A stretch of DNA of 64,000 bases, taken from a virus. Below are positions 37,881 to 50,484 of the stretch, piece after piece. The stretch lies in IMG/VR virus record IMGVR_UViG_3300032238_000599, positions 80,987 through 144,986 of that record; one strand, written 5' to 3'. How positions within the stretch are numbered: the stretch's first letter is position 1; the number at the start of each line of letters is the position of its first letter. The translations under genes were made by a program, and so were the position numbers. The notes beneath the pieces are model-generated. The model had not been told where the DNA came from and made no database searches. It saw nothing but the letters and a program-made list of their open reading frames with translations.

Positions 37881-38333
37881 ATGTGGTACTCAAAGATTAG
37901 TAAGGACATTTCCTACATTCCAGATGCTGTGGAATATTTCAATGCCGAATTAGAGGACGCAAGAAGTGATGCTCGTATAACGGGAAATATAGAAAAGGCC
38001 GCGGCCAGTATGCCAGGTATTGTGGAACAACGGTTTAGTCAACTTCAAGAGATTGAAGCTATTCTTGAGTACCTCAACATTGAACTAAGACGACTACGTA
38101 GTCAACATTTTCGAAAATATTTAGAAAATTATCAACGGGCTTTGTCTTCTAGAGACTGTGAAAAGTTTGTGGAAGGCGAAGCTGACGTTGTTGACTTTGA
38201 AAAAATTATTAATGAGTTTGCCTTGCTAAGAAATCGATGGCTAGGTATTACTAAAGCACTTGATGTTAAGCAATGGCAGTTATCCAATGTGATTAAACTA
38301 AGAACTGCTGGCATGGAAGACGCTACTTTATGA
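37881..38333 (+). CDS. uvsY: Recombination mediator UvsY-like
   Basis: Helical 150-aa protein near uvsX; C-terminal K..D.KQWQLSNVIKLR pattern. Confidence 0.7.
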   Translation: MWYSKISKDISYIPDAVEYFNAELEDARSDARITGNIEKAAASMPGIVEQRFSQLQEIEAILEYLNIELRRLRSQHFRKYLENYQRALSSRDCEKFVEGEADVVDFEKIINEFALLRNRWLGITKALDVKQWQLSNVIKLRTAGMEDATL

Positions 38334-39151
38334 AGCAAAAACCAACTTTATTTTTTAATGGTTGTAGTTTTGTTCACGGTGATAGTTTACTAACAGATTT
38401 TCCAGGAGAGCTTAATCTTTCCGATCGTGTTAGCAAACTAACTGACCATAAAACTGTAAATCTTGCAATTTATGGTGCTACTAACGACCTAATTACTTTT
38501 ACAACCATTGAATATTTTAACAACCTTTCTCCAGAAGAGAGAAAAAATCATGTGGCATGCATTGGATGGACCGAGTGTTCACGTACAATGATTCCACATC
38601 CGTATCTTGACATCCCTGACAGGGATTATATCAACCCTGACAACATTTACAACTTGCAAAAACTGTGGATGCACCTAAATCTCATTGTTTTGAAACATGC
38701 AGACGAAGATGTGCGTGAAAGGTTCCGCCCGTTAGTGAAAGAAATGCTTATACACATGGGCGAGCCCTATTGGTTTAAAGAGCATGTCAAAAATATTATC
38801 TTACTTGAAAATTATTTCAAGGCAAATGGCATTCCATATATGTTTTGGAACAGCATTGGCTTACCTATTAACAGACTAGACAAGCAAACTAGGGCAACTT
38901 TCGAAAAATACGTCGATTGGACAAAATGGATCAACTGGGCTGAACTAGATTTAGGAGTAAACCTTGCTCCGCCACCGAACGCCACACATCAATACAATCA
39001 AAAATACGGTGTGCTCGGTATGATGATGAATGATAGCGTAAAATATGAGGATGTGTGGACTAGTACAGGACATCCTGGACCTATCACTTGTCAAAAATGG
39101 GCTGAAGTTTTAGTACAACATTTAAAAATCAAAAATCTCATAGAAATTTGA
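38330..39151 (+). CDS. SGNH/GDSL-hydrolase-like protein
   Basis: FNGCSFVHG, NLAIYGATN, IGWT..R and C-terminal GHP motifs. Confidence 0.65.
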   Translation: MKQKPTLFFNGCSFVHGDSLLTDFPGELNLSDRVSKLTDHKTVNLAIYGATNDLITFTTIEYFNNLSPEERKNHVACIGWTECSRTMIPHPYLDIPDRDYINPDNIYNLQKLWMHLNLIVLKHADEDVRERFRPLVKEMLIHMGEPYWFKEHVKNIILLENYFKANGIPYMFWNSIGLPINRLDKQTRATFEKYVDWTKWINWAELDLGVNLAPPPNATHQYNQKYGVLGMMMNDSVKYEDVWTSTGHPGPITCQKWAEVLVQHLKIKNLIEI

Positions 39152-39182: not shown

Positions 39183-40376
39183 ATGACCACTATTGATAAA
39201 ATACTAAAAGAAATTTCCGCTATTGGATTTGATAAGTTGCAACCTAGCTTGCCTAAGCGAGATGTGAAAATTCTTAAAAATTTGGTGGTTTTAATCACTA
39301 GGCCTGAATACATTTCAGAAAATCAAGGAAAATTATTAATAAAAATTTTCAATGAAAACATTAGCTCCCTTAGTTTTCTAAATTTAGACTTAGCTGAAAT
39401 TTTAAAATCGCCATCGTGGTCGAGGCCCTTTCGAAAAATTATACAAACTCGAAAAATTGGAATTTTTCAGGCAGACACCGGTGAAAAATCAATTCAACTT
39501 GAATTCACGTTCACTAGTACGTTAAAGAAAATTTTACAAAACCTCACAAAATCTATTCAAGACGGAACTTCTAGTGTTACTATTGTTAGCGGAAGAATTT
39601 ATCGAATTCCACTCACAGAAAAAAATCTAGTGCTAGTAGTAGATGCATTTAAAAACCATAATTTTGAGGTTTCCACGGAAATTTTAAGTTTTTACGAAAC
39701 CATAAAATCTTGGGATGGTAAAGAATTTAAGAAAAATTTTGAAATTTTTTCTGAAAGCAATTCATCTCTAAGAGAAACTATTAAAAAAATGTTAAATCTT
39801 GAAACTGAGCCATCGGAGTTGATTCTTAGTGATCGAAAAATTCAGTTTCAGTACCAATTTTTACCAAAAAAAACTGAAGATACATTAACGTCGATTATAG
39901 CAAATAGAACTTCCAGCAAAGTTTATGTTAACAGTACAACATATTCAATGATAGACTTGGTAGCATCATTAAAAGAGCTACATCGGTTGCCATTGCTAGT
40001 TGTTTTTAATGGTTATAGTGAAACAGAAAGCCTAAAAAATCTGGAAATTTTGAGTCAAGCATTAGAAAATTCTAAAATTGATGATCGTGTAGGAATTTAT
40101 TTCCGCTTTGAAAATACTAACAGCGGAAAAGTTTTTAATCAAACTATTGCAGAGAAAAAATATAATTCTTTCCTTGACACTGACATTAATTGCGCTGGAA
40201 TTATTGGTGGAAAAATACCAAAATTTTTCCTTTCTTCCGCATGGCGCCCACAAGCTGTTATTAGTTTTACTAATAATTTAAAACACAATAAAGCCTCTGT
40301 CTATTGCAATAGTTGTGATTTAATTGTATACTATAACGAAAAGAAACCTCTAATAATAAACAATAATGACTTGTAA
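39183..40376 (+). CDS. Hypothetical protein upstream of uvsW
   Basis: 397-aa, very AT-rich ORF with its own promoter; overlaps the uvsW start. Confidence 0.6.
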   Translation: MTTIDKILKEISAIGFDKLQPSLPKRDVKILKNLVVLITRPEYISENQGKLLIKIFNENISSLSFLNLDLAEILKSPSWSRPFRKIIQTRKIGIFQADTGEKSIQLEFTFTSTLKKILQNLTKSIQDGTSSVTIVSGRIYRIPLTEKNLVLVVDAFKNHNFEVSTEILSFYETIKSWDGKEFKKNFEIFSESNSSLRETIKKMLNLETEPSELILSDRKIQFQYQFLPKKTEDTLTSIIANRTSSKVYVNSTTYSMIDLVASLKELHRLPLLVVFNGYSETESLKNLEILSQALENSKIDDRVGIYFRFENTNSGKVFNQTIAEKKYNSFLDTDINCAGIIGGKIPKFFLSSAWRPQAVISFTNNLKHNKASVYCNSCDLIVYYNEKKPLIINNNDL

Positions 40377-41820
40377 ATTAATCATTCGAGATGAAGTTAA
40401 TATTAAGCTAGAAGGCCTAGAAGTTGAGGTAAGACGTAAACTTGTAAATGCCTTCAAGTATGAAATACCTTACGCTCGTTATCAGCCTGCATATAAATTA
40501 GGTAGATGGGATGGCACAGTTAGTTTATTTGGATTAGGCGGTAACGGTTATCTATATCAACTAGAAAAAGTTCTTGAAATTTTAACAAATCAAGGCGTTG
40601 AAATCGACGAAATAGAAGATCTAAGAAATTCTGTTAAATTAAATTTTACTGAAATCGCACAAGATTTTTGGGGCGACATGTGTTGGCCAACTGGACATAG
40701 ATTTGCTGGGGAACCTATACGTCTTAGAGATGATCAAGTTGACGTTGTTAATAATTTTTTAAAAAATCCACAAAGTTTACAAGAGGTAGCAACAGGTGCA
40801 GGTAAGACCATTATGACTGCAACCATGGCTAAAATATGTGAGCCATATGGCCGAACTATCGTCATAGTACCTAATAAAGATCTTGTTACCCAGACAGAAG
40901 AAGATTTTCGAAATGTCAAACTAGATGTCGGTGTTTATTTCGGTGATAGGAAAGAACTTGGCAAAACACACACTATTTGTACTTGGCAAAGTCTAAACAT
41001 TTTAGATAAAAAATCTCATGATAATGCAACACTAACACTGGCTGAATTTCTTGACGGTGTTCAAACAGTAATTGTTGACGAAGTACACATGGCTAAAGCA
41101 GATGTGTTAAAAAAATTATTAACGCAAAACTTAGCCAATGCTCCAATTCGTTGGGGACTAACAGGAACAGTACCAAAAGAGAAATATGAACACGAACAGA
41201 TATTTGCAAGTATTGGTCCAGTTGTAGGACGAGTGACAGCTAAGGAATTACAAGATAAAGGCGTATTATCTAATTGTCATGTTAACATTGTACAAATGGT
41301 TGACATTAGGGAATTTAGAAGTTATACTGATGAAGTTAAGTATCTTGTAACAGATGACGATAGAATGATTTACATCAGTAAGTTAATTAAATCTATTTCA
41401 GAATCTGGAAATACATTGGTACTTGTAAATCGTATAGACTCAGGTAGGTTCCTAGTCAACGAGATAGAAGATAGTGCTTTTATTTCCGGTGAGGTTAAAG
41501 GCTCTACTCGAAAAGAGGAATACAAGGGACATGCAACTGCTGATAACAAGATTACTGTGGCGACTTATGGTGTGGCCGCTGTGGGTATTAATATCCCTCG
41601 TATTTTTAATCTGGTTCTTTTGGAATCCGGAAAGAGCTTTACACGAGTTATACAAAGCATTGGGCGAGGTATTAGAAAAGCTGAAGACAAAGACTTCGTA
41701 CAAATCTGGGATTTAACGTCAACTTGCAAATATGCAAAACGACATCTCACAGAAAGGAAGAAATTTTATAAAGACGCCAAATATCCATTTACAATAGAAA
41801 AGGTAGACTGGCAAAAATAA
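40366..41820 (+). CDS. uvsW: SF2 DNA helicase UvsW
   Basis: WDG, LRDDQ, ATGAGKT, VDEVH, GLTGT, GINIP and QSIGRG motifs. Confidence 0.9.
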   Translation: MTCKLIIRDEVNIKLEGLEVEVRRKLVNAFKYEIPYARYQPAYKLGRWDGTVSLFGLGGNGYLYQLEKVLEILTNQGVEIDEIEDLRNSVKLNFTEIAQDFWGDMCWPTGHRFAGEPIRLRDDQVDVVNNFLKNPQSLQEVATGAGKTIMTATMAKICEPYGRTIVIVPNKDLVTQTEEDFRNVKLDVGVYFGDRKELGKTHTICTWQSLNILDKKSHDNATLTLAEFLDGVQTVIVDEVHMAKADVLKKLLTQNLANAPIRWGLTGTVPKEKYEHEQIFASIGPVVGRVTAKELQDKGVLSNCHVNIVQMVDIREFRSYTDEVKYLVTDDDRMIYISKLIKSISESGNTLVLVNRIDSGRFLVNEIEDSAFISGEVKGSTRKEEYKGHATADNKITVATYGVAAVGINIPRIFNLVLLESGKSFTRVIQSIGRGIRKAEDKDFVQIWDLTSTCKYAKRHLTERKKFYKDAKYPFTIEKVDWQK

Positions 41821-41824
41821 CAAC

Positions 41825-42331
41825 ATGCAAATATTAACATTAGAAAATAAAACATTTCAACTAAACAATTTACCCGATGAGGTAGATGAAAACACTAGGT
41901 TTGCTGTATTAGACAACAGCGCACCTGCAGAACCAGACTTCTTTTTTGTACCATTAATATTTTTAGAAAGTTTTAATGCGCCAGCAATGGTATTAAGAAT
42001 CGGTGAAAACGAAGTAACAATGCCCATAGATTGGAGCATTGCAGTTGGCGATAGTTCTAGTTCGTGCGATATTGAAATACTTCCGCTTACAAGTCTTAAT
42101 GATAGGGGATTTGAAGCATTAGTTTTTAATCCCCTAAGTTCATTTAGGGTAGAATTTAAAAAAATTGAAATTATAAATTTTTACAATGATGTTAAATGGT
42201 ATTTCCCTAAGATGCGTAACGGGCAATTATTAGCAGTTCCAACTCAGCAAGGACACAAACCAGAGTGTTCATACTTTGTTAAAGAGATTAGTAGACAAAG
42301 TGAAATTATTCAATTAGACAAATTATTATGA
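41825..42331 (+). CDS. Hypothetical protein
   Basis: 168-aa beta-rich ORF in the replication operon. Confidence 0.6.
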   Translation: MQILTLENKTFQLNNLPDEVDENTRFAVLDNSAPAEPDFFFVPLIFLESFNAPAMVLRIGENEVTMPIDWSIAVGDSSSSCDIEILPLTSLNDRGFEALVFNPLSSFRVEFKKIEIINFYNDVKWYFPKMRNGQLLAVPTQQGHKPECSYFVKEISRQSEIIQLDKLL

Positions 42332-42975
42332 CATTAAAAGTTGCATATTTCCAACCAGTAGTACTAGCAATAGACCAAGTTCCGCCAGTTGAATTTAGCC
42401 GTATGTACAGCCTAGTAGAAAGTCTACACAACCGTCCTGAACTTAATGATGCTGACAATCCTTTTATCAGTATCCGTGGCGGACAACAGATACAAGTATA
42501 TCCTAATGAATATAACTTAGATGTTAAATGGTTAGTTGATTGGGTTGAGTTAATGGCGCAAGGTTATATGGAATTAATCATTGCTCAAAGCGGAACTGAG
42601 GACTTAAAATACTGCAAACCTGTCTGTGTTAGTATTTGGACTATTCGTCAACAAGAAGGCGACTACCAGGAAATGCATAGTCACCCAACAGGCAATTTAA
42701 GTGGTAACATCTATATCACTGCTCCAGAACTTGATGATGATTTAAAACAACCAAGTGACAGTCAAATTCTTTTTAGACTTCCACATACACGAGATGTTGG
42801 CAAGTTTATTATGAATGACACTTGGAAATATAGTCCAGCACCCGGAACGTTTGTCCTATTCCCAAGTTATCTTCCACATACAGTTTACCCATGGAAGGGT
42901 CCTGGTTATAGAACAGTAATGGCGTTCGATATCAAGTTAATTCCCAAGGATGAACTAGCTAATGGGAACACTTAA
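42328..42975 (+). CDS. 2OG-Fe(II) oxygenase (HxH type)
   Basis: HSH, LSGNIY, LFPSYLPHTVYP and RTVMAF motifs. Confidence 0.8.
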   Translation: MTLKVAYFQPVVLAIDQVPPVEFSRMYSLVESLHNRPELNDADNPFISIRGGQQIQVYPNEYNLDVKWLVDWVELMAQGYMELIIAQSGTEDLKYCKPVCVSIWTIRQQEGDYQEMHSHPTGNLSGNIYITAPELDDDLKQPSDSQILFRLPHTRDVGKFIMNDTWKYSPAPGTFVLFPSYLPHTVYPWKGPGYRTVMAFDIKLIPKDELANGNT

Positions 42976-43231
42976 ACCCGGTGCCACTTACATATATGAA
43001 CGTTCTGGCGGAACAGTTTATGCCAGAGAATTTGGATCCACAGAACGAAAAGTAATCGGGTATGAATGGCCAAATAAAGCAGATCCCCTCCAATATGATT
43101 TAGTCGAAACACAACTTTGGCAAGATATTGTTCATGCAGGGAAAACCAATCCCACTTTACAAAAAGCCTTAGATCGTGCTAAAATGTTGTACAACATGAG
43201 TGAAGAATATGAGCGAAAAGATCGAACTTAA
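42962..43231 (+). CDS. Hypothetical protein
   Basis: 89-aa ORF overlapping both neighbours. Confidence 0.55.
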   Translation: MGTLKPGATYIYERSGGTVYAREFGSTERKVIGYEWPNKADPLQYDLVETQLWQDIVHAGKTNPTLQKALDRAKMLYNMSEEYERKDRT

Positions 43232-43685
43232 AGAAAAACTAGCCGCAGTAGACATGAACTTTCGTTCCCTATGGGATGAAATAGATGACGCCCAACGAAA
43301 AAGTTTGAAGAGCGAACTTTATATTTTAAATCGATATATCAGTAGTGCAAAAGGTCAGAACAGAGAAACACAAGAACATTTTGTGTTAACTGTCAACGAA
43401 TATTTTAATAAAAATTGGAACGACCTACAGAAACATCCTAAACTGTTATGGCTATTACTTTGTATGTGTTCTTGGGATGGTCAAAAAATTATGTTCCACG
43501 AATGGATAGGATTTAAGAAAAAGAAGGGCGACACTAAAATTCTTAAATTTTTACTTGAAATTTATCCTAATAGAAAACACGACGAACTTGAAATGTTAGC
43601 ACAAACCATGACGGGTAAAGAAGCAAGAGAGCTTGCTAGAACGCATGGGTACGATGACAAACAAGTTGAAAAGATGTTTAAATAA
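43200..43685 (+). CDS. Possible clamp-loader small subunit (T4 gp62-like)
   Basis: LNRYISS...VNE..N...H...W pattern and size resemble gp62 homologues; replication context. Confidence 0.45.
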   Translation: MKNMSEKIELKEKLAAVDMNFRSLWDEIDDAQRKSLKSELYILNRYISSAKGQNRETQEHFVLTVNEYFNKNWNDLQKHPKLLWLLLCMCSWDGQKIMFHEWIGFKKKKGDTKILKFLLEIYPNRKHDELEMLAQTMTGKEARELARTHGYDDKQVEKMFK

Positions 43686-43687
43686 TA

Positions 43688-44389
43688 GTGATGCTAAACT
43701 TGAAACCAGTAGATCAACCTTATGTATGTTCGCATTGTAATAGCGGATTTATGAAGGAAAAAACATTAACTGTTCATATGTGCGAACAGAAGCGTAGGTA
43801 TTTGGCTCGTTCAGAGAAACACGTTCAGATAGGTTATCAAGCATACATTAAATTTTATCAGCTTACACAAAGATTCCAAGGCGAAAAAACCTATGACGAA
43901 TTTTCACGTAGTCCGTATTACAACGCTTTCATAAAATTTGGAAGTTTTGTTAGCAATGTTAACCCGTTGTATCCTCAACATTATATCGACTGGGTAGTAA
44001 CTAGTAACGTGAAATTAGATCACTGGTGTCGTCAAGAACTCTACGACAAGTATGTGCTTGAGTTGATTAAAACAGAAAATGTAGAGACAGCATTACAACG
44101 AACGCTAGCTCATATGATGGATTGGGCAGAAGAAAAAAATGCAGTATGGAATCATTATTTTGATTACGTAAGCCTTAGTCGTGCTACATTTGATATTAGA
44201 GATGGTAAGATAAGTCCGTGGGTTATACTTAACTGCCAAGCAGGAAAAACAATGCTATCTAAAATGAATGACGAACAGCTAGAAGCTATAAGTGCCGTAA
44301 TTGATCCAGAGTATTGGATGAGGACATTCCGTAAGCAAAAACAAGATGTAGAACTTGTTCGACAAGTTCTTGAGGAAGCTAAATTATGA
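43688..44389 (+). CDS. Hypothetical protein with an N-terminal C2HC zinc finger
   Basis: YVCSHCNSGFMKEKTLTVHMC. Confidence 0.6.
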   Translation: MMLNLKPVDQPYVCSHCNSGFMKEKTLTVHMCEQKRRYLARSEKHVQIGYQAYIKFYQLTQRFQGEKTYDEFSRSPYYNAFIKFGSFVSNVNPLYPQHYIDWVVTSNVKLDHWCRQELYDKYVLELIKTENVETALQRTLAHMMDWAEEKNAVWNHYFDYVSLSRATFDIRDGKISPWVILNCQAGKTMLSKMNDEQLEAISAVIDPEYWMRTFRKQKQDVELVRQVLEEAKL

Positions 44390-44568
44390 TTACCCCAGGA
44401 AATACAGAAGCAGTACAGTTAGGCCTAGAAGTAATTTTAAGTGAAGACGATAAAACAGTCTATGTAAAATTTACAGGTTTTGAAAACATAGAAGAAGCAG
44501 ATAATTATGCTTCTTACTTAACTGATACATTACCATTATTACTTTTTGAATCTGAAATAAAACACTAA
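44386..44568 (+). CDS. Small acidic hypothetical protein
   Basis: 60 aa; ATGA and TAATG overlaps with both neighbours. Confidence 0.55.
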   Translation: MITPGNTEAVQLGLEVILSEDDKTVYVKFTGFENIEEADNYASYLTDTLPLLLFESEIKH

Positions 44569-45146
44569 TGCCAGATATTGACATTGACTTTGCAGATCGA
44601 TCTAAAGCTCTTGAACATTTCAAGCATGTTACTGCGACTATAGAAGACAACGGCACTTTTAAAAAACACAATTCAGGAATATATTGTACTTCTATTCCGT
44701 ACAATCCAATTACTGGTATGAGTACCATTGACTATAAGTCGGCAGAAGACCGAGGTTATTTTAAGATCGATTTTTTGAATGTTAATGTTTATAACGGTGT
44801 AAAAGACGAAGCACATTTAATTCAATTAATGGAGACTGAACCACTATGGGATCTATTAGAACAAGATGACTTTACAAATTTACTGTTCCACATAAATGGG
44901 CATGGCTACTTGATGAGGCAAATGAAACCTACGAGTATAGAAGAGTTAGCAATGTGTTTGTCTTTGATACGCCCTGCGAAAAAACATCTAGTTGGGAAGA
45001 CGTGGACGGAGATTGGGATGACGATTTGGGAGAAACCGGAGAACGGTGAATACTACTTTAAGAAGAGCCACGCAGTTGCGTATGCTATGGCTATTGTAGT
45101 ACAAATGAATTTAATTTGTGAACAGATAAGTTACGGATACAGTTAA
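44568..45146 (+). CDS. Minimal DnaE-like (family C DNA polymerase) catalytic core
   Basis: PDIDIDF, HNSG, GYFKIDFL, LIRPA and YYFKKSHAVAYA match DnaE motifs in order, within only 192 aa. Confidence 0.85.
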   Translation: MPDIDIDFADRSKALEHFKHVTATIEDNGTFKKHNSGIYCTSIPYNPITGMSTIDYKSAEDRGYFKIDFLNVNVYNGVKDEAHLIQLMETEPLWDLLEQDDFTNLLFHINGHGYLMRQMKPTSIEELAMCLSLIRPAKKHLVGKTWTEIGMTIWEKPENGEYYFKKSHAVAYAMAIVVQMNLICEQISYGYS

Positions 45147-45517
45147 CGAGTTTTTCTAACAAGCTGAACTGATTTTCTTTTAATTCTTTTTAAAGTTAGG
45201 TTCATTAAATTGACCACTGGTCCTAACACAATTCTTACATCCTTGCTGTTAAATGTTTTAATAGCATATCTATAAGGTTCAATTTGCGTCCTTAAAAATA
45301 TGTTGATAGGAACTTGTCTATTTGATTCCCACCACCAAGTTTCTCCTATTTCTAAAAATCCTGATTTTTCTTCAGGTGTTCGAATAGAATTAAGATCGTA
45401 AAAACTAGTTACGTACTGGTCTTGGTTAATAATAATCCCAACATACTCGTTTTCGCCGTAGTTTATCACACTTATAAACGGAAGTTGCTCTTCAATATTG
45501 TCTCGTAATTTTATCAT
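45143..45517 (-). CDS. Hypothetical protein
   Basis: 124-aa ORF (YVGIIIN, WWWESNR) convergent with the mini-DnaE. Confidence 0.6.
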   Translation of the reverse strand: MIKLRDNIEEQLPFISVINYGENEYVGIIINQDQYVTSFYDLNSIRTPEEKSGFLEIGETWWWESNRQVPINIFLRTQIEPYRYAIKTFNSKDVRIVLGPVVNLMNLTLKRIKRKSVQLVRKTR

Positions 45518-45539
45518 AAATATAGCTAAGGATTGCCAA

Positions 45540-46385
45540 ATGCAAAAAATTTCAAGTTATTTATTACACAATAGAATAGAGTTGGTTGCCGATTTGGCAG
45601 GATTTATCACGGAGTATAAACCAGTGTACAAAAGACATATCAGAGTCTATCGCGGAATAGACAATCTATTAGAATTCGACGTTAAAAACGCCGATCAAAA
45701 ACGCATTGACTTAGGAGAGTTTGACACTTTAGAAATGCATGTGATGGACAATACCGGACAAGCATTACCAAGTAGCCCGTATACTGTAGAACCCTTAGAT
45801 CAAGAAACATCTAAGGGACTAGCTACAGTAACTATCCCAGCAATTGATTTAGACGGTCTTATTGCACAGGGGCTAACTTATTCTGTTGTTGCAAATGGCA
45901 ATACTATTCTTTATGCTGATAGCAGATTTGGAGCGAGTGGAAATATCGATTTAATTACTACAGCTATCCCAGTAGCTAAGCCTGTACAAAAATATGATCA
46001 TTTCTTAGGACTAGGCGATTTTAACAATACAACTATAACATATACTAGCGATGCAGTTAGTTTAAGAACAAGAGATGCTGTTCCTCCAAATCATATTCAT
46101 GTGGAAATTTCAGTTACAAATCTTAAAGGTACCATATGGGTAGAAGCAACAAAACAAGAAGTTATTGGGCACGAATCGTTTACTCATAGTAATGGCACAA
46201 GAGTCTATGAACAAGTTTTAAACCCGGCAACTACTGACACTATTACAGTTCCGTTAATTGATTTATTAGAAACTGGTTATACTTATATACGTGTTAATTG
46301 GACTACAGACCCAACTATAACAACTGGTAAAATTGATTTTTTCACAGTAGAATTCCACGCTCATCCTCCAGAAGTACCATGTTAA
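45540..46385 (+). CDS. Probable structural (baseplate/Ig-like) protein
   Basis: TAAATA at 45517 and AAGGA RBS before ATG 45540; beta-rich; VYRGIDN..F.VKN.DQK motif. Confidence 0.5.
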   Translation: MQKISSYLLHNRIELVADLAGFITEYKPVYKRHIRVYRGIDNLLEFDVKNADQKRIDLGEFDTLEMHVMDNTGQALPSSPYTVEPLDQETSKGLATVTIPAIDLDGLIAQGLTYSVVANGNTILYADSRFGASGNIDLITTAIPVAKPVQKYDHFLGLGDFNNTTITYTSDAVSLRTRDAVPPNHIHVEISVTNLKGTIWVEATKQEVIGHESFTHSNGTRVYEQVLNPATTDTITVPLIDLLETGYTYIRVNWTTDPTITTGKIDFFTVEFHAHPPEVPC

Positions 46386-46399
46386 GTTAATCAAACTTC

Positions 46400-46428
46400 T
46401 TGACTGTTTTTAGTTAGTCTGTTATAAT
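46400..46428 (+). promoter_or_regulatory. sigma70 promoter, probably giving a leaderless primase mRNA
   Basis: TTGACT-N17-TATAAT; ATG 46434 follows after 5 nt. Confidence 0.8.
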
Positions 46429-46433
46429 ATAGT

Positions 46434-47447
46434 ATGAGTCTAATTGTAGAAACAGTTCAAAACTATCTTCCTGCTAGAAGAAAACATACCCCCAGTGGTT
46501 GGATAAGTTTTAATGCACCGTGTTGTAGCGACAAACGCCAGCGTGGTGGTCTCATCTTTAATACCGGCGACGCAGTAAGCTACCACTGTTTTAATTGTGG
46601 CTTCAAAGCTAGTTGGCAACCTGGAAGACAAATTAGCCAAAAGATGAGTAAGCTGTTGCGATTATTCAATGTACCCGACGATACAATTAATCAACTGAGA
46701 TTAGAAGCTCTAAGATTAAATGATACATCAAGTGTTGAAATCCGTAGTATAGTTCCTAAGTTTGATGCTCGTGCATTACCAATGGATGCTAAAAGTTTAG
46801 ACGAGTGGACTACTTGGATCAATTTGCAAGGTTGGGAAAATGCCGACCAAGAACTTATCAATGCTTTTTGTTATATACGAAATATTAGAGGATTAGATCC
46901 CTATGCCCATCCTTACTACTGGACTAGCAAAGTTGGATTTAAGAATAGAATTATAATTCCGTTTTACAAAGATGGTGTGATAGTTGGCTGGACTGCTAGG
47001 GCAACTAAACCAGATGTTAAGCCAAAGTTTTTAAGTGAACAACAACCGGGGTATGTGTTTAATTTAGATGCACAAGACAACAATAGACAATTCGTAATTG
47101 TTTGCGAAGGTCCGTTTGATGCACTAAGTATTGATGGATGTGCGCTACTAGGTGCAGAAATTAAAGACAGTCAAAACTGGTTGCTAAAACAGCTAGGCAA
47201 AGAAATTGTTCTAGTTCCAGACAGAGATCACGAAGGCCCTAGAACTGTAGAGCAGGCGATAGAATACGGGTGGACAGTTAGCATGCCTGACTGGCCTGAC
47301 AATGTCAAAGACGTTAATGATGCAATGCTAAAATTAGGAAGGCTAACAACCTTATACTTAATTTTACAAGCAAAGGAATCAAATAGTCTTAAGATACAGT
47401 TAAGAGCAAAAAAATGGTTTAAGGACGTAAATGAAAAAGCTAATTAA
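46434..47447 (+). CDS. DNA primase (T4 gp61-like; Zn finger plus TOPRIM)
   Basis: FNAPCC...YHCFNCG, RIIIPF, GWTAR, VCEGPFDA, PDRD and KDVND motifs. Confidence 0.9.
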   Translation: MSLIVETVQNYLPARRKHTPSGWISFNAPCCSDKRQRGGLIFNTGDAVSYHCFNCGFKASWQPGRQISQKMSKLLRLFNVPDDTINQLRLEALRLNDTSSVEIRSIVPKFDARALPMDAKSLDEWTTWINLQGWENADQELINAFCYIRNIRGLDPYAHPYYWTSKVGFKNRIIIPFYKDGVIVGWTARATKPDVKPKFLSEQQPGYVFNLDAQDNNRQFVIVCEGPFDALSIDGCALLGAEIKDSQNWLLKQLGKEIVLVPDRDHEGPRTVEQAIEYGWTVSMPDWPDNVKDVNDAMLKLGRLTTLYLILQAKESNSLKIQLRAKKWFKDVNEKAN

Positions 47448-47544
47448 TTTTATATTAACCCCGTGGCGCAAATGGAAACAGCATCAAGAGTACAAAAAAC
47501 GTCTTAAAGAAATTCAAGAACGAGATCCGTTTATATACAAATGA
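47431..47544 (+). CDS. 37-aa basic peptide ending in RDPFIYK (not in the ORF track)
   Basis: AAGGA RBS; MKKLINFILTPWRKWKQHQEYKKRLKEIQERDPFIYK; ATGA overlap with the carbamoyltransferase. Confidence 0.65.
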   Translation: MKKLINFILTPWRKWKQHQEYKKRLKEIQERDPFIYK

Positions 47545-49016
47545 TTACGTGGGGAATATCAGCAAACAGTCATGACGCGGCATTAGCTGTGTTTCTTGAC
47601 GAGCACTTAGTATTTGCTAGTCATAGCGAAAGATTTAGCAAGAAGAAAAACGACAAGCACTTGTGCAAAGAACTTGTCGATTATGCTAAAAATAAATTCT
47701 ATGGACTACCAGATCGAGTGTACTGGTATGAAAATCCTTATTTAAAAACAGCAAGACAACTGTATGCAGGGCAAGGATGGAAGTGGGAAGACAATGATAT
47801 AAAATCATATCTAAGCCGTTGGAATATTAATGGACGATTACATTATACTAATCATCATCGTAGTCATGCCGCTACTGGTTATTTTACTAGTGGCTTTGAC
47901 GATGCTTGTATTTTAGTAATTGATGCCATCGGAGAATTCGAAACTCTTACTATTTGGAAAGCAGAAGGTAATCGATTAAAGAAATTATACAGTAAGTGGT
48001 TTCCAAATAGTATTGGATTATTTTACAGCGCCATTACGCAACGACTAGCCCTACGTCCTTTAGAAGATGAATATATTTTAATGGGTATGAGTGCATATGG
48101 CAATGTTGACAACTTGTATACTCGTATGCGAGACGATTTTGTAGACAAATATCACGACTACACTTTTGCTAAAAATTTACACAGAGGTTGTTTAGATTGG
48201 GCGCCAGACCTAACAGTCAATGACAGTTTTGACGTTGCTGCCGCTACACAAGAAATATATGAAAGATTTTTTGAAACAGCACTAGGACATGCTAAAAAAT
48301 TAACAGGTAGCAACAATCTAGTCTTAATGGGCGGCTGTGCTCTTAACTGTGTTGCTAATCGATTAACAGGCAAGTATTTTGATAATACTTGGATTATGCC
48401 TAACCCTGGAGATGCAGGTAGTGCTATCGGTGCAGTACTGGCACACAACCCTCAGTGGCGTATTGAACCCAAACATTTCACTCCTTTCTTAGGATATGAT
48501 ATGGGGTACAAATCTACCAATGAAGAAATTGTAGATTATTTGATAGAAAATAAAATTTGCGGTGTTGCAAGAGGGCCCGCAGAGTTTGGGCCTAGAGCAT
48601 TAGGCAACAGAAGTTTGTTAGCCGATCCTCGGGGTAATGATATAAAGGAACGTGTAAATGATATTAAAAGAAGAGAACAATTTAGACCATTTGCGCCAGT
48701 TATTCTGGAGGAGTTATGTGATACTTACTTTGATATGCCTAATGGTTGGAGTAACAGTAGGTATATGCAAGTCATCGCTCGCTGTAGGGTTCCTGAGCTT
48801 TTTCCTGCTATTGTGCATCACGACGGCACTTCTCGTGTACAAACTGTCTCGAGAGACGGATCACCATTGCGACTGTTGCTCGAAAGATGGTATACATTAA
48901 CTGGTTGCCCAATGTTACTAAACACTAGTTTAAACATTAAAGGACGGCCAATGGTTAATGACCATGCTGATGCAAGAACATTTGAAGCCCACCATAATGT
49001 TAGGGTATTCACATAA
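47541..49016 (+). CDS. O-carbamoyltransferase (NodU/CmcH/TobZ family)
   Basis: HDAA, ERFSKKK, HHRSHAA, DAIGE, GGCALN, PGDAG, EFGPRALGNRS, RPFAP, DGTSRVQTV and LNTSLN motifs. Confidence 0.93.
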   Translation: MITWGISANSHDAALAVFLDEHLVFASHSERFSKKKNDKHLCKELVDYAKNKFYGLPDRVYWYENPYLKTARQLYAGQGWKWEDNDIKSYLSRWNINGRLHYTNHHRSHAATGYFTSGFDDACILVIDAIGEFETLTIWKAEGNRLKKLYSKWFPNSIGLFYSAITQRLALRPLEDEYILMGMSAYGNVDNLYTRMRDDFVDKYHDYTFAKNLHRGCLDWAPDLTVNDSFDVAAATQEIYERFFETALGHAKKLTGSNNLVLMGGCALNCVANRLTGKYFDNTWIMPNPGDAGSAIGAVLAHNPQWRIEPKHFTPFLGYDMGYKSTNEEIVDYLIENKICGVARGPAEFGPRALGNRSLLADPRGNDIKERVNDIKRREQFRPFAPVILEELCDTYFDMPNGWSNSRYMQVIARCRVPELFPAIVHHDGTSRVQTVSRDGSPLRLLLERWYTLTGCPMLLNTSLNIKGRPMVNDHADARTFEAHHNVRVFT

Positions 49017-49035
49017 AAGAGTATATAATATTACA

Positions 49036-50484
49036 ATGACTAGACAGAACGCAGACTACGGATTTGACATCCAAAAATTATATTTAGAAATGATGATGAG
49101 TGACGCAGAAACATTTGTGCGTTGCCAGAGTATTTTTGATCACACTCTGTTTGATCGAAAGCTACAAGATGTAGCACAGTTTATTAACAGCTATGTAGAA
49201 GAAAACAGAGTAATGCCTACATTTGATATTGTTAAGGCAACTACTCATGTAGAACTAGCGAATCCTGGGGAACTACACGAAAATCACTATGATTGGTTAC
49301 TTGGTGAATTTGAAACATTTATTAGACACAAGGGTTTAGAAAGAGCGATTTTACAATCCGCAGACTTACTGGAAAAAGGCGAGTATGGCCCAGTAGAGGA
49401 CCTAGTTAAAAAAGCTGTTCAAGTTGGTTTGACTAAGGACATGGGTACTGATTATTTTTCAGATCCACGTGCTCGATTGATGAAGATTAAAGACAAGAAC
49501 GGACAAGTTAGTACTGGTTGGAAAACTATGGATCACAAACTTTTCGGTGGTATGAACCGCGGAGAGTTGAACATTTTTGCAGGCGGATCGGGCGCAGGCA
49601 AGTCGTTATTTCTTGCAAATTTAGGATGTAATTGGGCACTAGCAGGGCTTAATGTTTTGTACCTAACATTGGAACTTTCAGAAGAGCTTGTTAGTATGCG
49701 TATTGATAGTATGCTTACAGGAGTGCCAACTAGGGATATTTTCAAAGATCTAGACGATGTTGAAATGAAAGTGAAAATGATTGGCAAAAAGTCGGGACAG
49801 ATGCAGGTCAAATATATGCCTAGTGGTAAAACTAGTAACGATTTGCGTAGCTATATTAAAGAATATGAAATTAAAACAGGACGTAAGTTAGATGTTCTAT
49901 TAGTTGACTACTTGGACTTGCTCATGCCAATTAGTAAGAAAATTTCAGCAGAGAACTTGTTTATTAAAGACAAGTATGTATCAGAAGAACTACGTAATCT
50001 AGCAGTGGAATTAAACTGTGTGTTCGTTACTGCGGCACAGTTGAACAGGGGCGCAGTTGAGGAGGTGGAATTTGACCATTCACATATTTCAGGTGGTTTA
50101 TCAAAGATTCAAACAGCAGATAACGTATTTGGTATCTTTACCAGTAGAGCTATGCGAGAGCGCGGTCGTTATCAAATTCAACTTATGAAGACACGTTCAA
50201 GTAGTGGTGTTGGAGCAAAAATTGATCTAGAGTTTGATGTTGACACATTGCGTATTCGAGATCTTGAAGAAGATATGGACAATGCTCCAACAAGTCGTGG
50301 AGGTAGTATTCTTGAAAGTATCAAACAACGTACATCAACAGTAACAACTATTGATCCGTCTACCGGAGAAATTAGCTCTGATCCTACACTAGGAGTTAGT
50401 GTTGCTAAGGTTAAACCTCAAGTAGAAAGTTCAAAACTACGACAACTATTGAGTAATTTACCAAACGATTCCGATCCGTTTTAA
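49036..50484 (+). CDS. gp41: Replicative DnaB-family helicase (T4 gp41-like)
   Basis: AGGSGAGKS, YLTLELSE, VDYLDL, TAAQLNR and KTR motifs; likely start ATG 49036. Confidence 0.9.
   Translation: MTRQNADYGFDIQKLYLEMMMSDAETFVRCQSIFDHTLFDRKLQDVAQFINSYVEENRVMPTFDIVKATTHVELANPGELHENHYDWLLGEFETFIRHKGLERAILQSADLLEKGEYGPVEDLVKKAVQVGLTKDMGTDYFSDPRARLMKIKDKNGQVSTGWKTMDHKLFGGMNRGELNIFAGGSGAGKSLFLANLGCNWALAGLNVLYLTLELSEELVSMRIDSMLTGVPTRDIFKDLDDVEMKVKMIGKKSGQMQVKYMPSGKTSNDLRSYIKEYEIKTGRKLDVLLVDYLDLLMPISKKISAENLFIKDKYVSEELRNLAVELNCVFVTAAQLNRGAVEEVEFDHSHISGGLSKIQTADNVFGIFTSRAMRERGRYQIQLMKTRSSSGVGAKIDLEFDVDTLRIRDLEEDMDNAPTSRGGSILESIKQRTSTVTTIDPSTGEISSDPTLGVSVAKVKPQVESSKLRQLLSNLPNDSDPF

Follow-up and report, generated by a model that had tools for sequence, protein, structure and literature searches.

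A 192-residue protein of an uncultured giant phage is very probably the C-terminal unit of a split minimal DNA polymerase III alpha

Introduction

In cyanobacteria, DnaE is encoded by two distant genes, and the two products are joined by a split intein through protein trans-splicing. Among phages, a split minimal DNA polymerase III alpha (Pol III alpha) of the group 2.2 jumbo phages was described from sequence by Iyer, Anantharaman, Krishnan, Burroughs and Aravind (2021, Viruses 13:63, PMC7824862). These authors assigned Mg2+ and template binding to the C-terminal unit and NTP binding to the N-terminal unit, and they suggested that the phage minimal Pol III alpha serves one-strand synthesis or repair. 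The paper on phage CBB (PMC5259590) noticed only the N-terminal unit, as a truncated alpha-like protein of 172 aa, and the paper on phage Atu_ph07 (PMC6102473) annotated alpha and epsilon subunits; homologues of gp43 are listed in the annotations of both phages. We found no experimental study of the family, biochemical or genetic, in the literature searched.

Here we analyse a 64-kb stretch of DNA (the window) that is part of a 145-kb record from an uncultured giant phage, estimated to be 39% complete. One of its genes encodes a 192-aa protein, and we are highly confident that this protein is a unit of the split minimal Pol III alpha family. We refer to it as the C-unit, and to the partner seen in related phages as the N-unit.

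Results

The gene and its motifs

The gene at 44568-45146 on the plus strand is translated as 192 codons and is stop-free throughout. Its features in the window are as follows.

44568-45146, plus strand: very probable C-unit gene of a split minimal Pol III alpha (P0001), 192 aa, comprising the palm portion that holds the metal ligands (its second part) and a shortened set of fingers
44566-44570, plus strand: TAATG, the stop/start overlap of a 60-aa ORF (44386-44568) with the C-unit gene, read from the sequence
44571-44591, plus strand: PDIDIDF, residues 2-8; D3 and D5 are the counterparts of the metal ligands D401 and D403 of E. coli, and D7 that of D405
44664-44684, plus strand: KHNSGIY, residues 33-39; the H..G palm strand, corresponding to E. 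coli HAGG 511-514, which there follows the thumb
44754-44777, plus strand: GYFKIDFL, residues 63-70; K66 is the counterpart of E. coli K553, and D68 that of D555, the third catalytic Asp
44964-44981, plus strand: LIRPAK, residues 133-138; finger motif, aligned with E. coli ALFRPG (R639-P640)
45057-45086, plus strand: FKKSHAVAYA, residues 164-173; finger helix, aligned with E. coli FNKSHSAAYA 756-765

Residues were mapped by aligning E. coli dnaE to profiles of the phage family, and the family profile aligns with E. coli DnaE 538-641 and 740-769. The E. coli protein carries PDFDVDF at 400-406 and KFDFL at 553-557, so that D3, D5 and D68 are equivalent to D401, D403 and D555. In the fingers, R135-P136 correspond to R639-P640, and K166 and H168 correspond to K758 and H760. 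The N-terminus of the C-unit is equivalent to E. coli M399, and its C-terminus lies ~20 residues past the KSHAxAY helix, where the alignment ends at positions 781-784 of the 1160 residues of E. coli DnaE.

The distances between the motifs indicate which parts of a bacterial DnaE are missing. Whereas 105 residues separate D405 from H511 in E. coli, only 26 separate D7 from H34, and the thumb is therefore absent from the 192-aa protein. A phmmer alignment gives a similar result for M. tuberculosis DnaE1, in which 143 residues make up the stretch from DxD to H..G that has 42 residues here. Compared with bacterial DnaE, a further ~85-90 finger residues are gone between the RP and KSH motifs, and the alignment to E. 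coli DnaE places no PHP, HhH or OB part in the protein. Upstream, the 60-aa ORF that ends in the TAATG overlap itself overlaps the preceding gene (43688-44389) as ATGA. A preliminary description of this DNA had reported an intact, translationally coupled gene with DnaE motifs in DnaE order, all three catalytic aspartates, and neither thumb nor PHP, HhH and OB domains. Each of these observations is borne out by the open frame, the overlap and the residue mapping.

Sequence family and conservation

Searches with general profile collections return little for the 192-aa protein. The Pfam search yielded only a sub-threshold match to a finger domain, and the NCBIfam DnaE models scored 21 bits, far below their cut-offs of 434-1002. 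Against the PDB, phmmer found four weak colinear stretches to M. tuberculosis DnaE1 (5lew; 413-425, 482-515, 568-664 and 773-788), with MPDIDIDF identical in the two proteins. The phage family PHROG 11778, annotated as DNA polymerase, matches residues 3-186 over profile positions 8-194 of 197 (E 6e-69).

This family is large. Full-length homologues were found by tblastn in 96 jumbo-phage records, including RaK2, 121Q, GAP32, CBB, PA5oct, XaC1, SCTP-2, Atu_ph07 and Phosso, and the C-unit is 33-55% identical to the copies in cultured phages. More than 549 IMG/VR contigs encode the family, and an exhaustive HMMER search gave 431 clusters at 50% identity, with complete members of 183-219 aa. At the nucleotide level, a megablast search of the phage collection with window positions 40000-50000 found nothing.

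Conservation is concentrated in the polymerase motifs. Across 86 homologues that are 29-54% identical, there is no exception to D3, D5, K66, D68 or P136, and D7, H34, G37, R135, K138, K165 and H168 are conserved in at least 90% of these diverged sequences. The dN/dS ratio against close relatives is 0.05-0.13, a range obtained with synonymous sites near saturation. Given the invariant aspartates, the uniform length and these dN/dS values, the gene is under purifying selection and functional rather than a remnant. The preliminary description had named variable length, loss of the aspartates or a fold other than a palm as signs of decay or misassignment, and it had proposed a dN/dS comparison; homologue length, the aspartates and the dN/dS values, together with the predicted fold described below, all speak for a maintained gene.

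Predicted fold

We predicted the structure of the C-unit with AlphaFold2 from the alignment of 86 homologues. The model has a pLDDT of 96.6 and a pTM of 0.88. The best 18 Foldseek matches to this model are all Pol III alpha, DnaE or PolC, and the best 15 VIA matches are all Pol III alpha or PolC. In the VIA comparison with Taq Pol III alpha 461-841 (3e0d), 188 of the 192 residues are aligned with a Z of 9.7 and an rmsd of 3.5. The comparison with E. coli 400-781 (2hnh) gives Z 9.0 and that with PolC Z 9.4, the value also given for 5lew, and the next unrelated chain reaches Z 3.1. The model thus matches only family C polymerases, and the predicted fold corresponds to the second part of the Pol III alpha palm together with the fingers. 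We note that AlphaFold2 saw DnaE structures in training, and models of DnaE-like sequences may lean on them.

The partner N-unit and the division of the palm

The GRGS strand and helices of the palm are absent from the C-unit, and in relatives they are found on a separate N-unit of ~170 aa. In 121Q and Phosso, positions 16-96 of PF07733 match a separate ORF of ~180 aa (E 1e-10 to 1e-13), which has G-x-G-R-G-S-S inside and ends with ...EFL[KN]. More generally, N-units terminate with FL[RK], a few residues short of the PDxDxDF of the C-unit, and the N-unit profile aligns with E. coli 323-392, spanning R362-G363-S364. The Pol-beta-like core is therefore not found on one chain, as DxD and the third Asp lie in the C-unit and hG[GS] lies on the N-unit. 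The N-unit ends at the equivalent of E. coli L392 and the C-unit starts at the equivalent of M399, which leaves no room for an intein. From these alignments, the break in the palm is placed in a short loop.

No N-unit was found on the 145-kb record, which is estimated to be 39% complete. We considered relatives, defined as IMG/VR contigs whose C-units are 66-75% identical to the 192-aa protein. An N-unit is encoded by each of the six relatives that are more complete than this record, as well as by 121Q and Phosso, and its distance from the C-unit ranges from 31 to ~220 kb; in 121Q the N- and C-units are at 44.2 kb and 13.3 kb. In the four relatives of 60-83% completeness it lies 55-185 kb away, and both of the 100%-complete relatives (383 and 364 kb) carry the two units ~180 kb apart. 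Among isolates, the genus tallies of N-unit and C-unit coincide except for eight Bacillus phages, which have a full-length DnaE, and one partial Klebsiella record. By these comparisons, the C-unit is best described as half of a two-gene enzyme and not as a complete catalytic unit.

Natural fusions of the two units

Forms in which N- and C-unit are fused occur in three clusters only. They are 375-376 aa long, with a short linker between the units.

L183, 519-1649, plus strand: fused form P0155 (others are P0090 and P0154), with N- and C-unit joined, at the C-unit locus

The fused gene occupies the C-unit locus, and its downstream genes are as in the split forms. In the C-unit tree, the three fused forms make up one clade (support 1.0), which is enclosed by split forms (0.99 support for the enclosing clade) and lies twelve nodes from the midpoint root. 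Since the fused clade is nested among split forms, the fusion looks secondary, and the tree suggests that it is probably derived from the split state.

The model of the fused form P0090 has a pLDDT of 86.2, with residues 80-375 mostly above 90 and the linker at ~63; in the alignment used for folding, the last 14 residues of the N-units were misplaced. This model aligns with Taq Pol III alpha over 288 residues with a Z of 22.4 and an rmsd of 3.0, a value that belongs to a fused relative ~38% identical to the 192-aa protein and not to the split pair. It also aligns with M. tuberculosis DnaE1 302-800, and its best match outside family C has a Z of 3.7. In the P0090 model, the N- and C-units together are thus predicted to rebuild one C-family palm with fingers.

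The replication module and neighbouring genes

The C-unit gene lies inside a replication and recombination module. The module begins with a gp32-like SSB, UvsX, UvsY, two unknown genes, UvsW, phrog_11279 and a 2OG-Fe(II) oxygenase. After the oxygenase come phrog_11758, phrog_11058, a small ORF, the C-unit and the convergent phrog_11637, followed by a structural-like protein, primase, a carbamoyltransferase and a DnaB-like helicase. The order UvsX-UvsY...UvsW...C-unit...primase-helicase is common to 121Q and, in part, to Phosso. The two genes that flank the C-unit and its small upstream ORF are as follows.

43688-44389, plus strand: conserved neighbour phrog_11058 (E 2e-64), 233 aa, with an N-terminal C-x2-C...H-x-C zinc-finger-like motif
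45143-45517, minus strand: convergent phrog_11637 gene, 124 aa, whose 3' end overlaps the C-unit stop by 4 nt

In 121Q, the homologue of phrog_11058 (gp14, E 6e-38) lies a short distance upstream of the C-unit, and so does the homologue in Phosso (gene 433, E 2e-50). The 233-aa protein has no Pfam or NCBIfam family, and all that an Atlas search returned was viral clusters of hypothetical proteins and a single weak C2H2 lead. We treat this neighbour as genomic context and not as a demonstrated subunit. A phrog_11637 gene occupies the equivalent position in 121Q, in Phosso and in the contig with the fused form (E 8e-10).

Several other genes of the module deserve mention. Of the 263 positions of the phrog_11758 profile, the 161-aa ORF at 43200-43685 (plus strand) covers only 137-251, and an 89-aa ORF at 42962-43231 (plus strand), in another frame, overlaps its start. 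Combined, the two ORFs have about the length of 121Q gp13 (281 aa), and 42962-43231 and 43200-43685 may be one frameshifted or two-frame gene. The 2OG-Fe(II) oxygenase is encoded at 42328-42975 (plus strand), and a Nol-like carbamoyltransferase at 47541-49016 (plus strand) stands between primase and the DnaB-like helicase; the presence of both inside the module may point to nucleotide or DNA modification. Between UvsY and UvsW lie the genes at 38330-39151 and 39183-40376 (both plus strand), and the same slot in 121Q holds a DnaQ-like 'polymerase exonuclease subunit'. The 273-aa ORF at 38330-39151 was considered as the counterpart of the 121Q subunit and rejected, as the two are not homologous; its protein gives only a sub-threshold match to DUF6071.

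PolB (PF00136) has no match anywhere on the 145-kb record, the window included, and neither PF00929 (DnaQ) nor PF02811 (PHP) has one; for a fragment that is 39% complete, these negatives do not speak for a true absence from the genome. The preliminary description had pointed to the missing family B polymerase in the window and had proposed a search of the rest of the genome for PHP, exonuclease and PolB genes. The lack of PolB holds for the record as a whole, and it is very probably an effect of the record being a fragment, since relatives carry PolB. A PolB of ~890-1010 aa is encoded in 121Q, in Phosso, in both 100%-complete relatives and in three of the four partial ones. With PolB present in the relatives, the split Pol III alpha is therefore very probably not the sole replicase.

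Discussion

Taken together, it is likely that the 192-aa protein is the C-unit of a minimal Pol III alpha that is encoded by two genes, of the type found in T4-like group 2.2 jumbo phages (RaK2, PA5oct, Atu_ph07), which has an N-unit as its partner and acts as a low-processivity polymerase beside PolB. In this mechanism, the C-unit would supply the metal-binding residues D3, D5 and D68, together with K66, the lysine beside the third Asp, and trimmed fingers bearing the RP and KSH motifs. The ~170-aa N-unit, expected in the missing ~60% of the genome, would supply the first palm strand and the helices with GRGS. The two chains may associate non-covalently into a heterodimer, and the pair would then form one Pol-beta-like palm with fingers, devoid of thumb, PHP, clamp-binding, HhH and OB parts. 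We infer that the pair would bind a dNTP through GRGS, K66 and the RP and KSH residues of the fingers, and that D3, D5 and D68 would carry out two-metal nucleotidyl transfer. Beside the family B replicase, such an enzyme could fill gaps, for instance, or take part in recombination-dependent or one-strand synthesis. What the analysis itself establishes is which protein this is, how it is predicted to fold and how well it is conserved, and that both halves and PolB occur together in relatives; the pairing, the catalysis and the role proposed here go beyond that.

As to its biochemical role, we lean towards a DNA polymerase that is distributive, depends on a template and works beside PolB, because the C-family finger elements are kept, the gene is located in the replication module, and contacts from a thumb or to a clamp are missing. 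The same architecture also weighs against this reading. With neither a thumb nor a clamp-binding region in the predicted structure, it would be hard to account for how primer-template DNA is held.

The absence of thumb, clamp-binding, HhH and OB parts would also suit an enzyme in which N- and C-unit come together for chemistry other than templated replication, such as template-independent addition, priming or end-tailing, or the making of a nucleotide product. The weak neighbours of the fused model outside family C (terminal transferases, the MenT toxin and cGAS-like proteins, Z at most 3.7) are in keeping with such an activity, but they score far under the Pol III matches, the C-family finger motifs RP and KSHAxAY are among the most conserved positions, and the gene sits inside a replication and recombination module. 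We consider this reading unlikely. It seems to us rather improbable that the enzyme has additional subunits, with the conserved, translationally coupled genes upstream (phrog_11058, phrog_11758 and the small ORF) standing in for the missing thumb and DNA-holding domains and giving it a dedicated role in recombination-dependent replication.

The preliminary description had offered two readings, namely a catalytic subunit of a split family C replicase and a minimal nucleotidyltransferase with another job. For the latter, in which the 192-aa protein would be a self-sufficient 'mini-DnaE', one may cite its three catalytic aspartates and its confident folding alone in silico. However, the strand and helix that carry hG[GS] in a Pol-beta-like core, and with them the GRGS of the palm, are encoded by the N-unit, no relative of sufficient completeness is without an N-unit, and the natural fusions join exactly these two units, so that independent action is very unlikely. 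The former is right in that the protein belongs to a family C polymerase divided between genes, and is corrected in that it is neither a complete catalytic unit nor, very probably, the sole replicase. That the C-unit serves as catalytic subunit of the main replicase in place of a family B polymerase is suggested by the lack of PolB, PHP and DnaQ matches on the 145-kb record, but this record is 39% complete, PolB accompanies the C-unit in 121Q, Phosso, both 100%-complete relatives and three of the four partial ones, and the published CBB and Atu_ph07 annotations include gp43 homologues; we give this possibility hardly any weight. That the gene is what remains of a dnaE captured from bacteria and now decaying, as the shortness of the protein next to the 1160-aa E. 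coli DnaE might suggest, is refuted by the family size (431 clusters), the uniform length of complete members, the invariant catalytic residues, the dN/dS of about 0.05-0.13 and the synteny kept from E. coli to Sinorhizobium phages.

The family, which is widespread in giant phages, represents a natural minimal form of the core of the bacterial replicative polymerase, with a palm and trimmed fingers on two chains. Knowledge of its activity would establish how small a family C polymerase can be and still work, and it would explain why the gene is retained beside a family B replicase.

The closest known system is that of Iyer et al. (2021). The protein is like their C-unit and PHROG 11778 in its size of ~190 aa, in starting with PDxDxDF, in its place in a replication module and in the type of phage, and it shows no difference in kind; this copy comes from an uncultured, incomplete genome. 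Relatives have the far-off N-unit and a family B polymerase, whereas neither is on this 39%-complete record. The gene is thus a further member of a family published in 2021 and no new kind of feature.

With bacterial DnaE and PolC (2hnh, 3e0d, 5lew and 3f2b), the phage protein has in common the palm and finger core, the catalytic triad, the equivalent of K553, and the RP and KSH motifs. The bacterial enzymes have PHP, thumb, beta-binding/HhH, OB and tau-binding domains, whereas the phage C-unit is devoid of them, and the phage palm is divided over two polypeptides. The split DnaE of cyanobacteria is likewise a family C polymerase from two distant genes, but its split point is elsewhere. The phage halves have no extra residues at the split and no intein, and therefore must stay separate chains.
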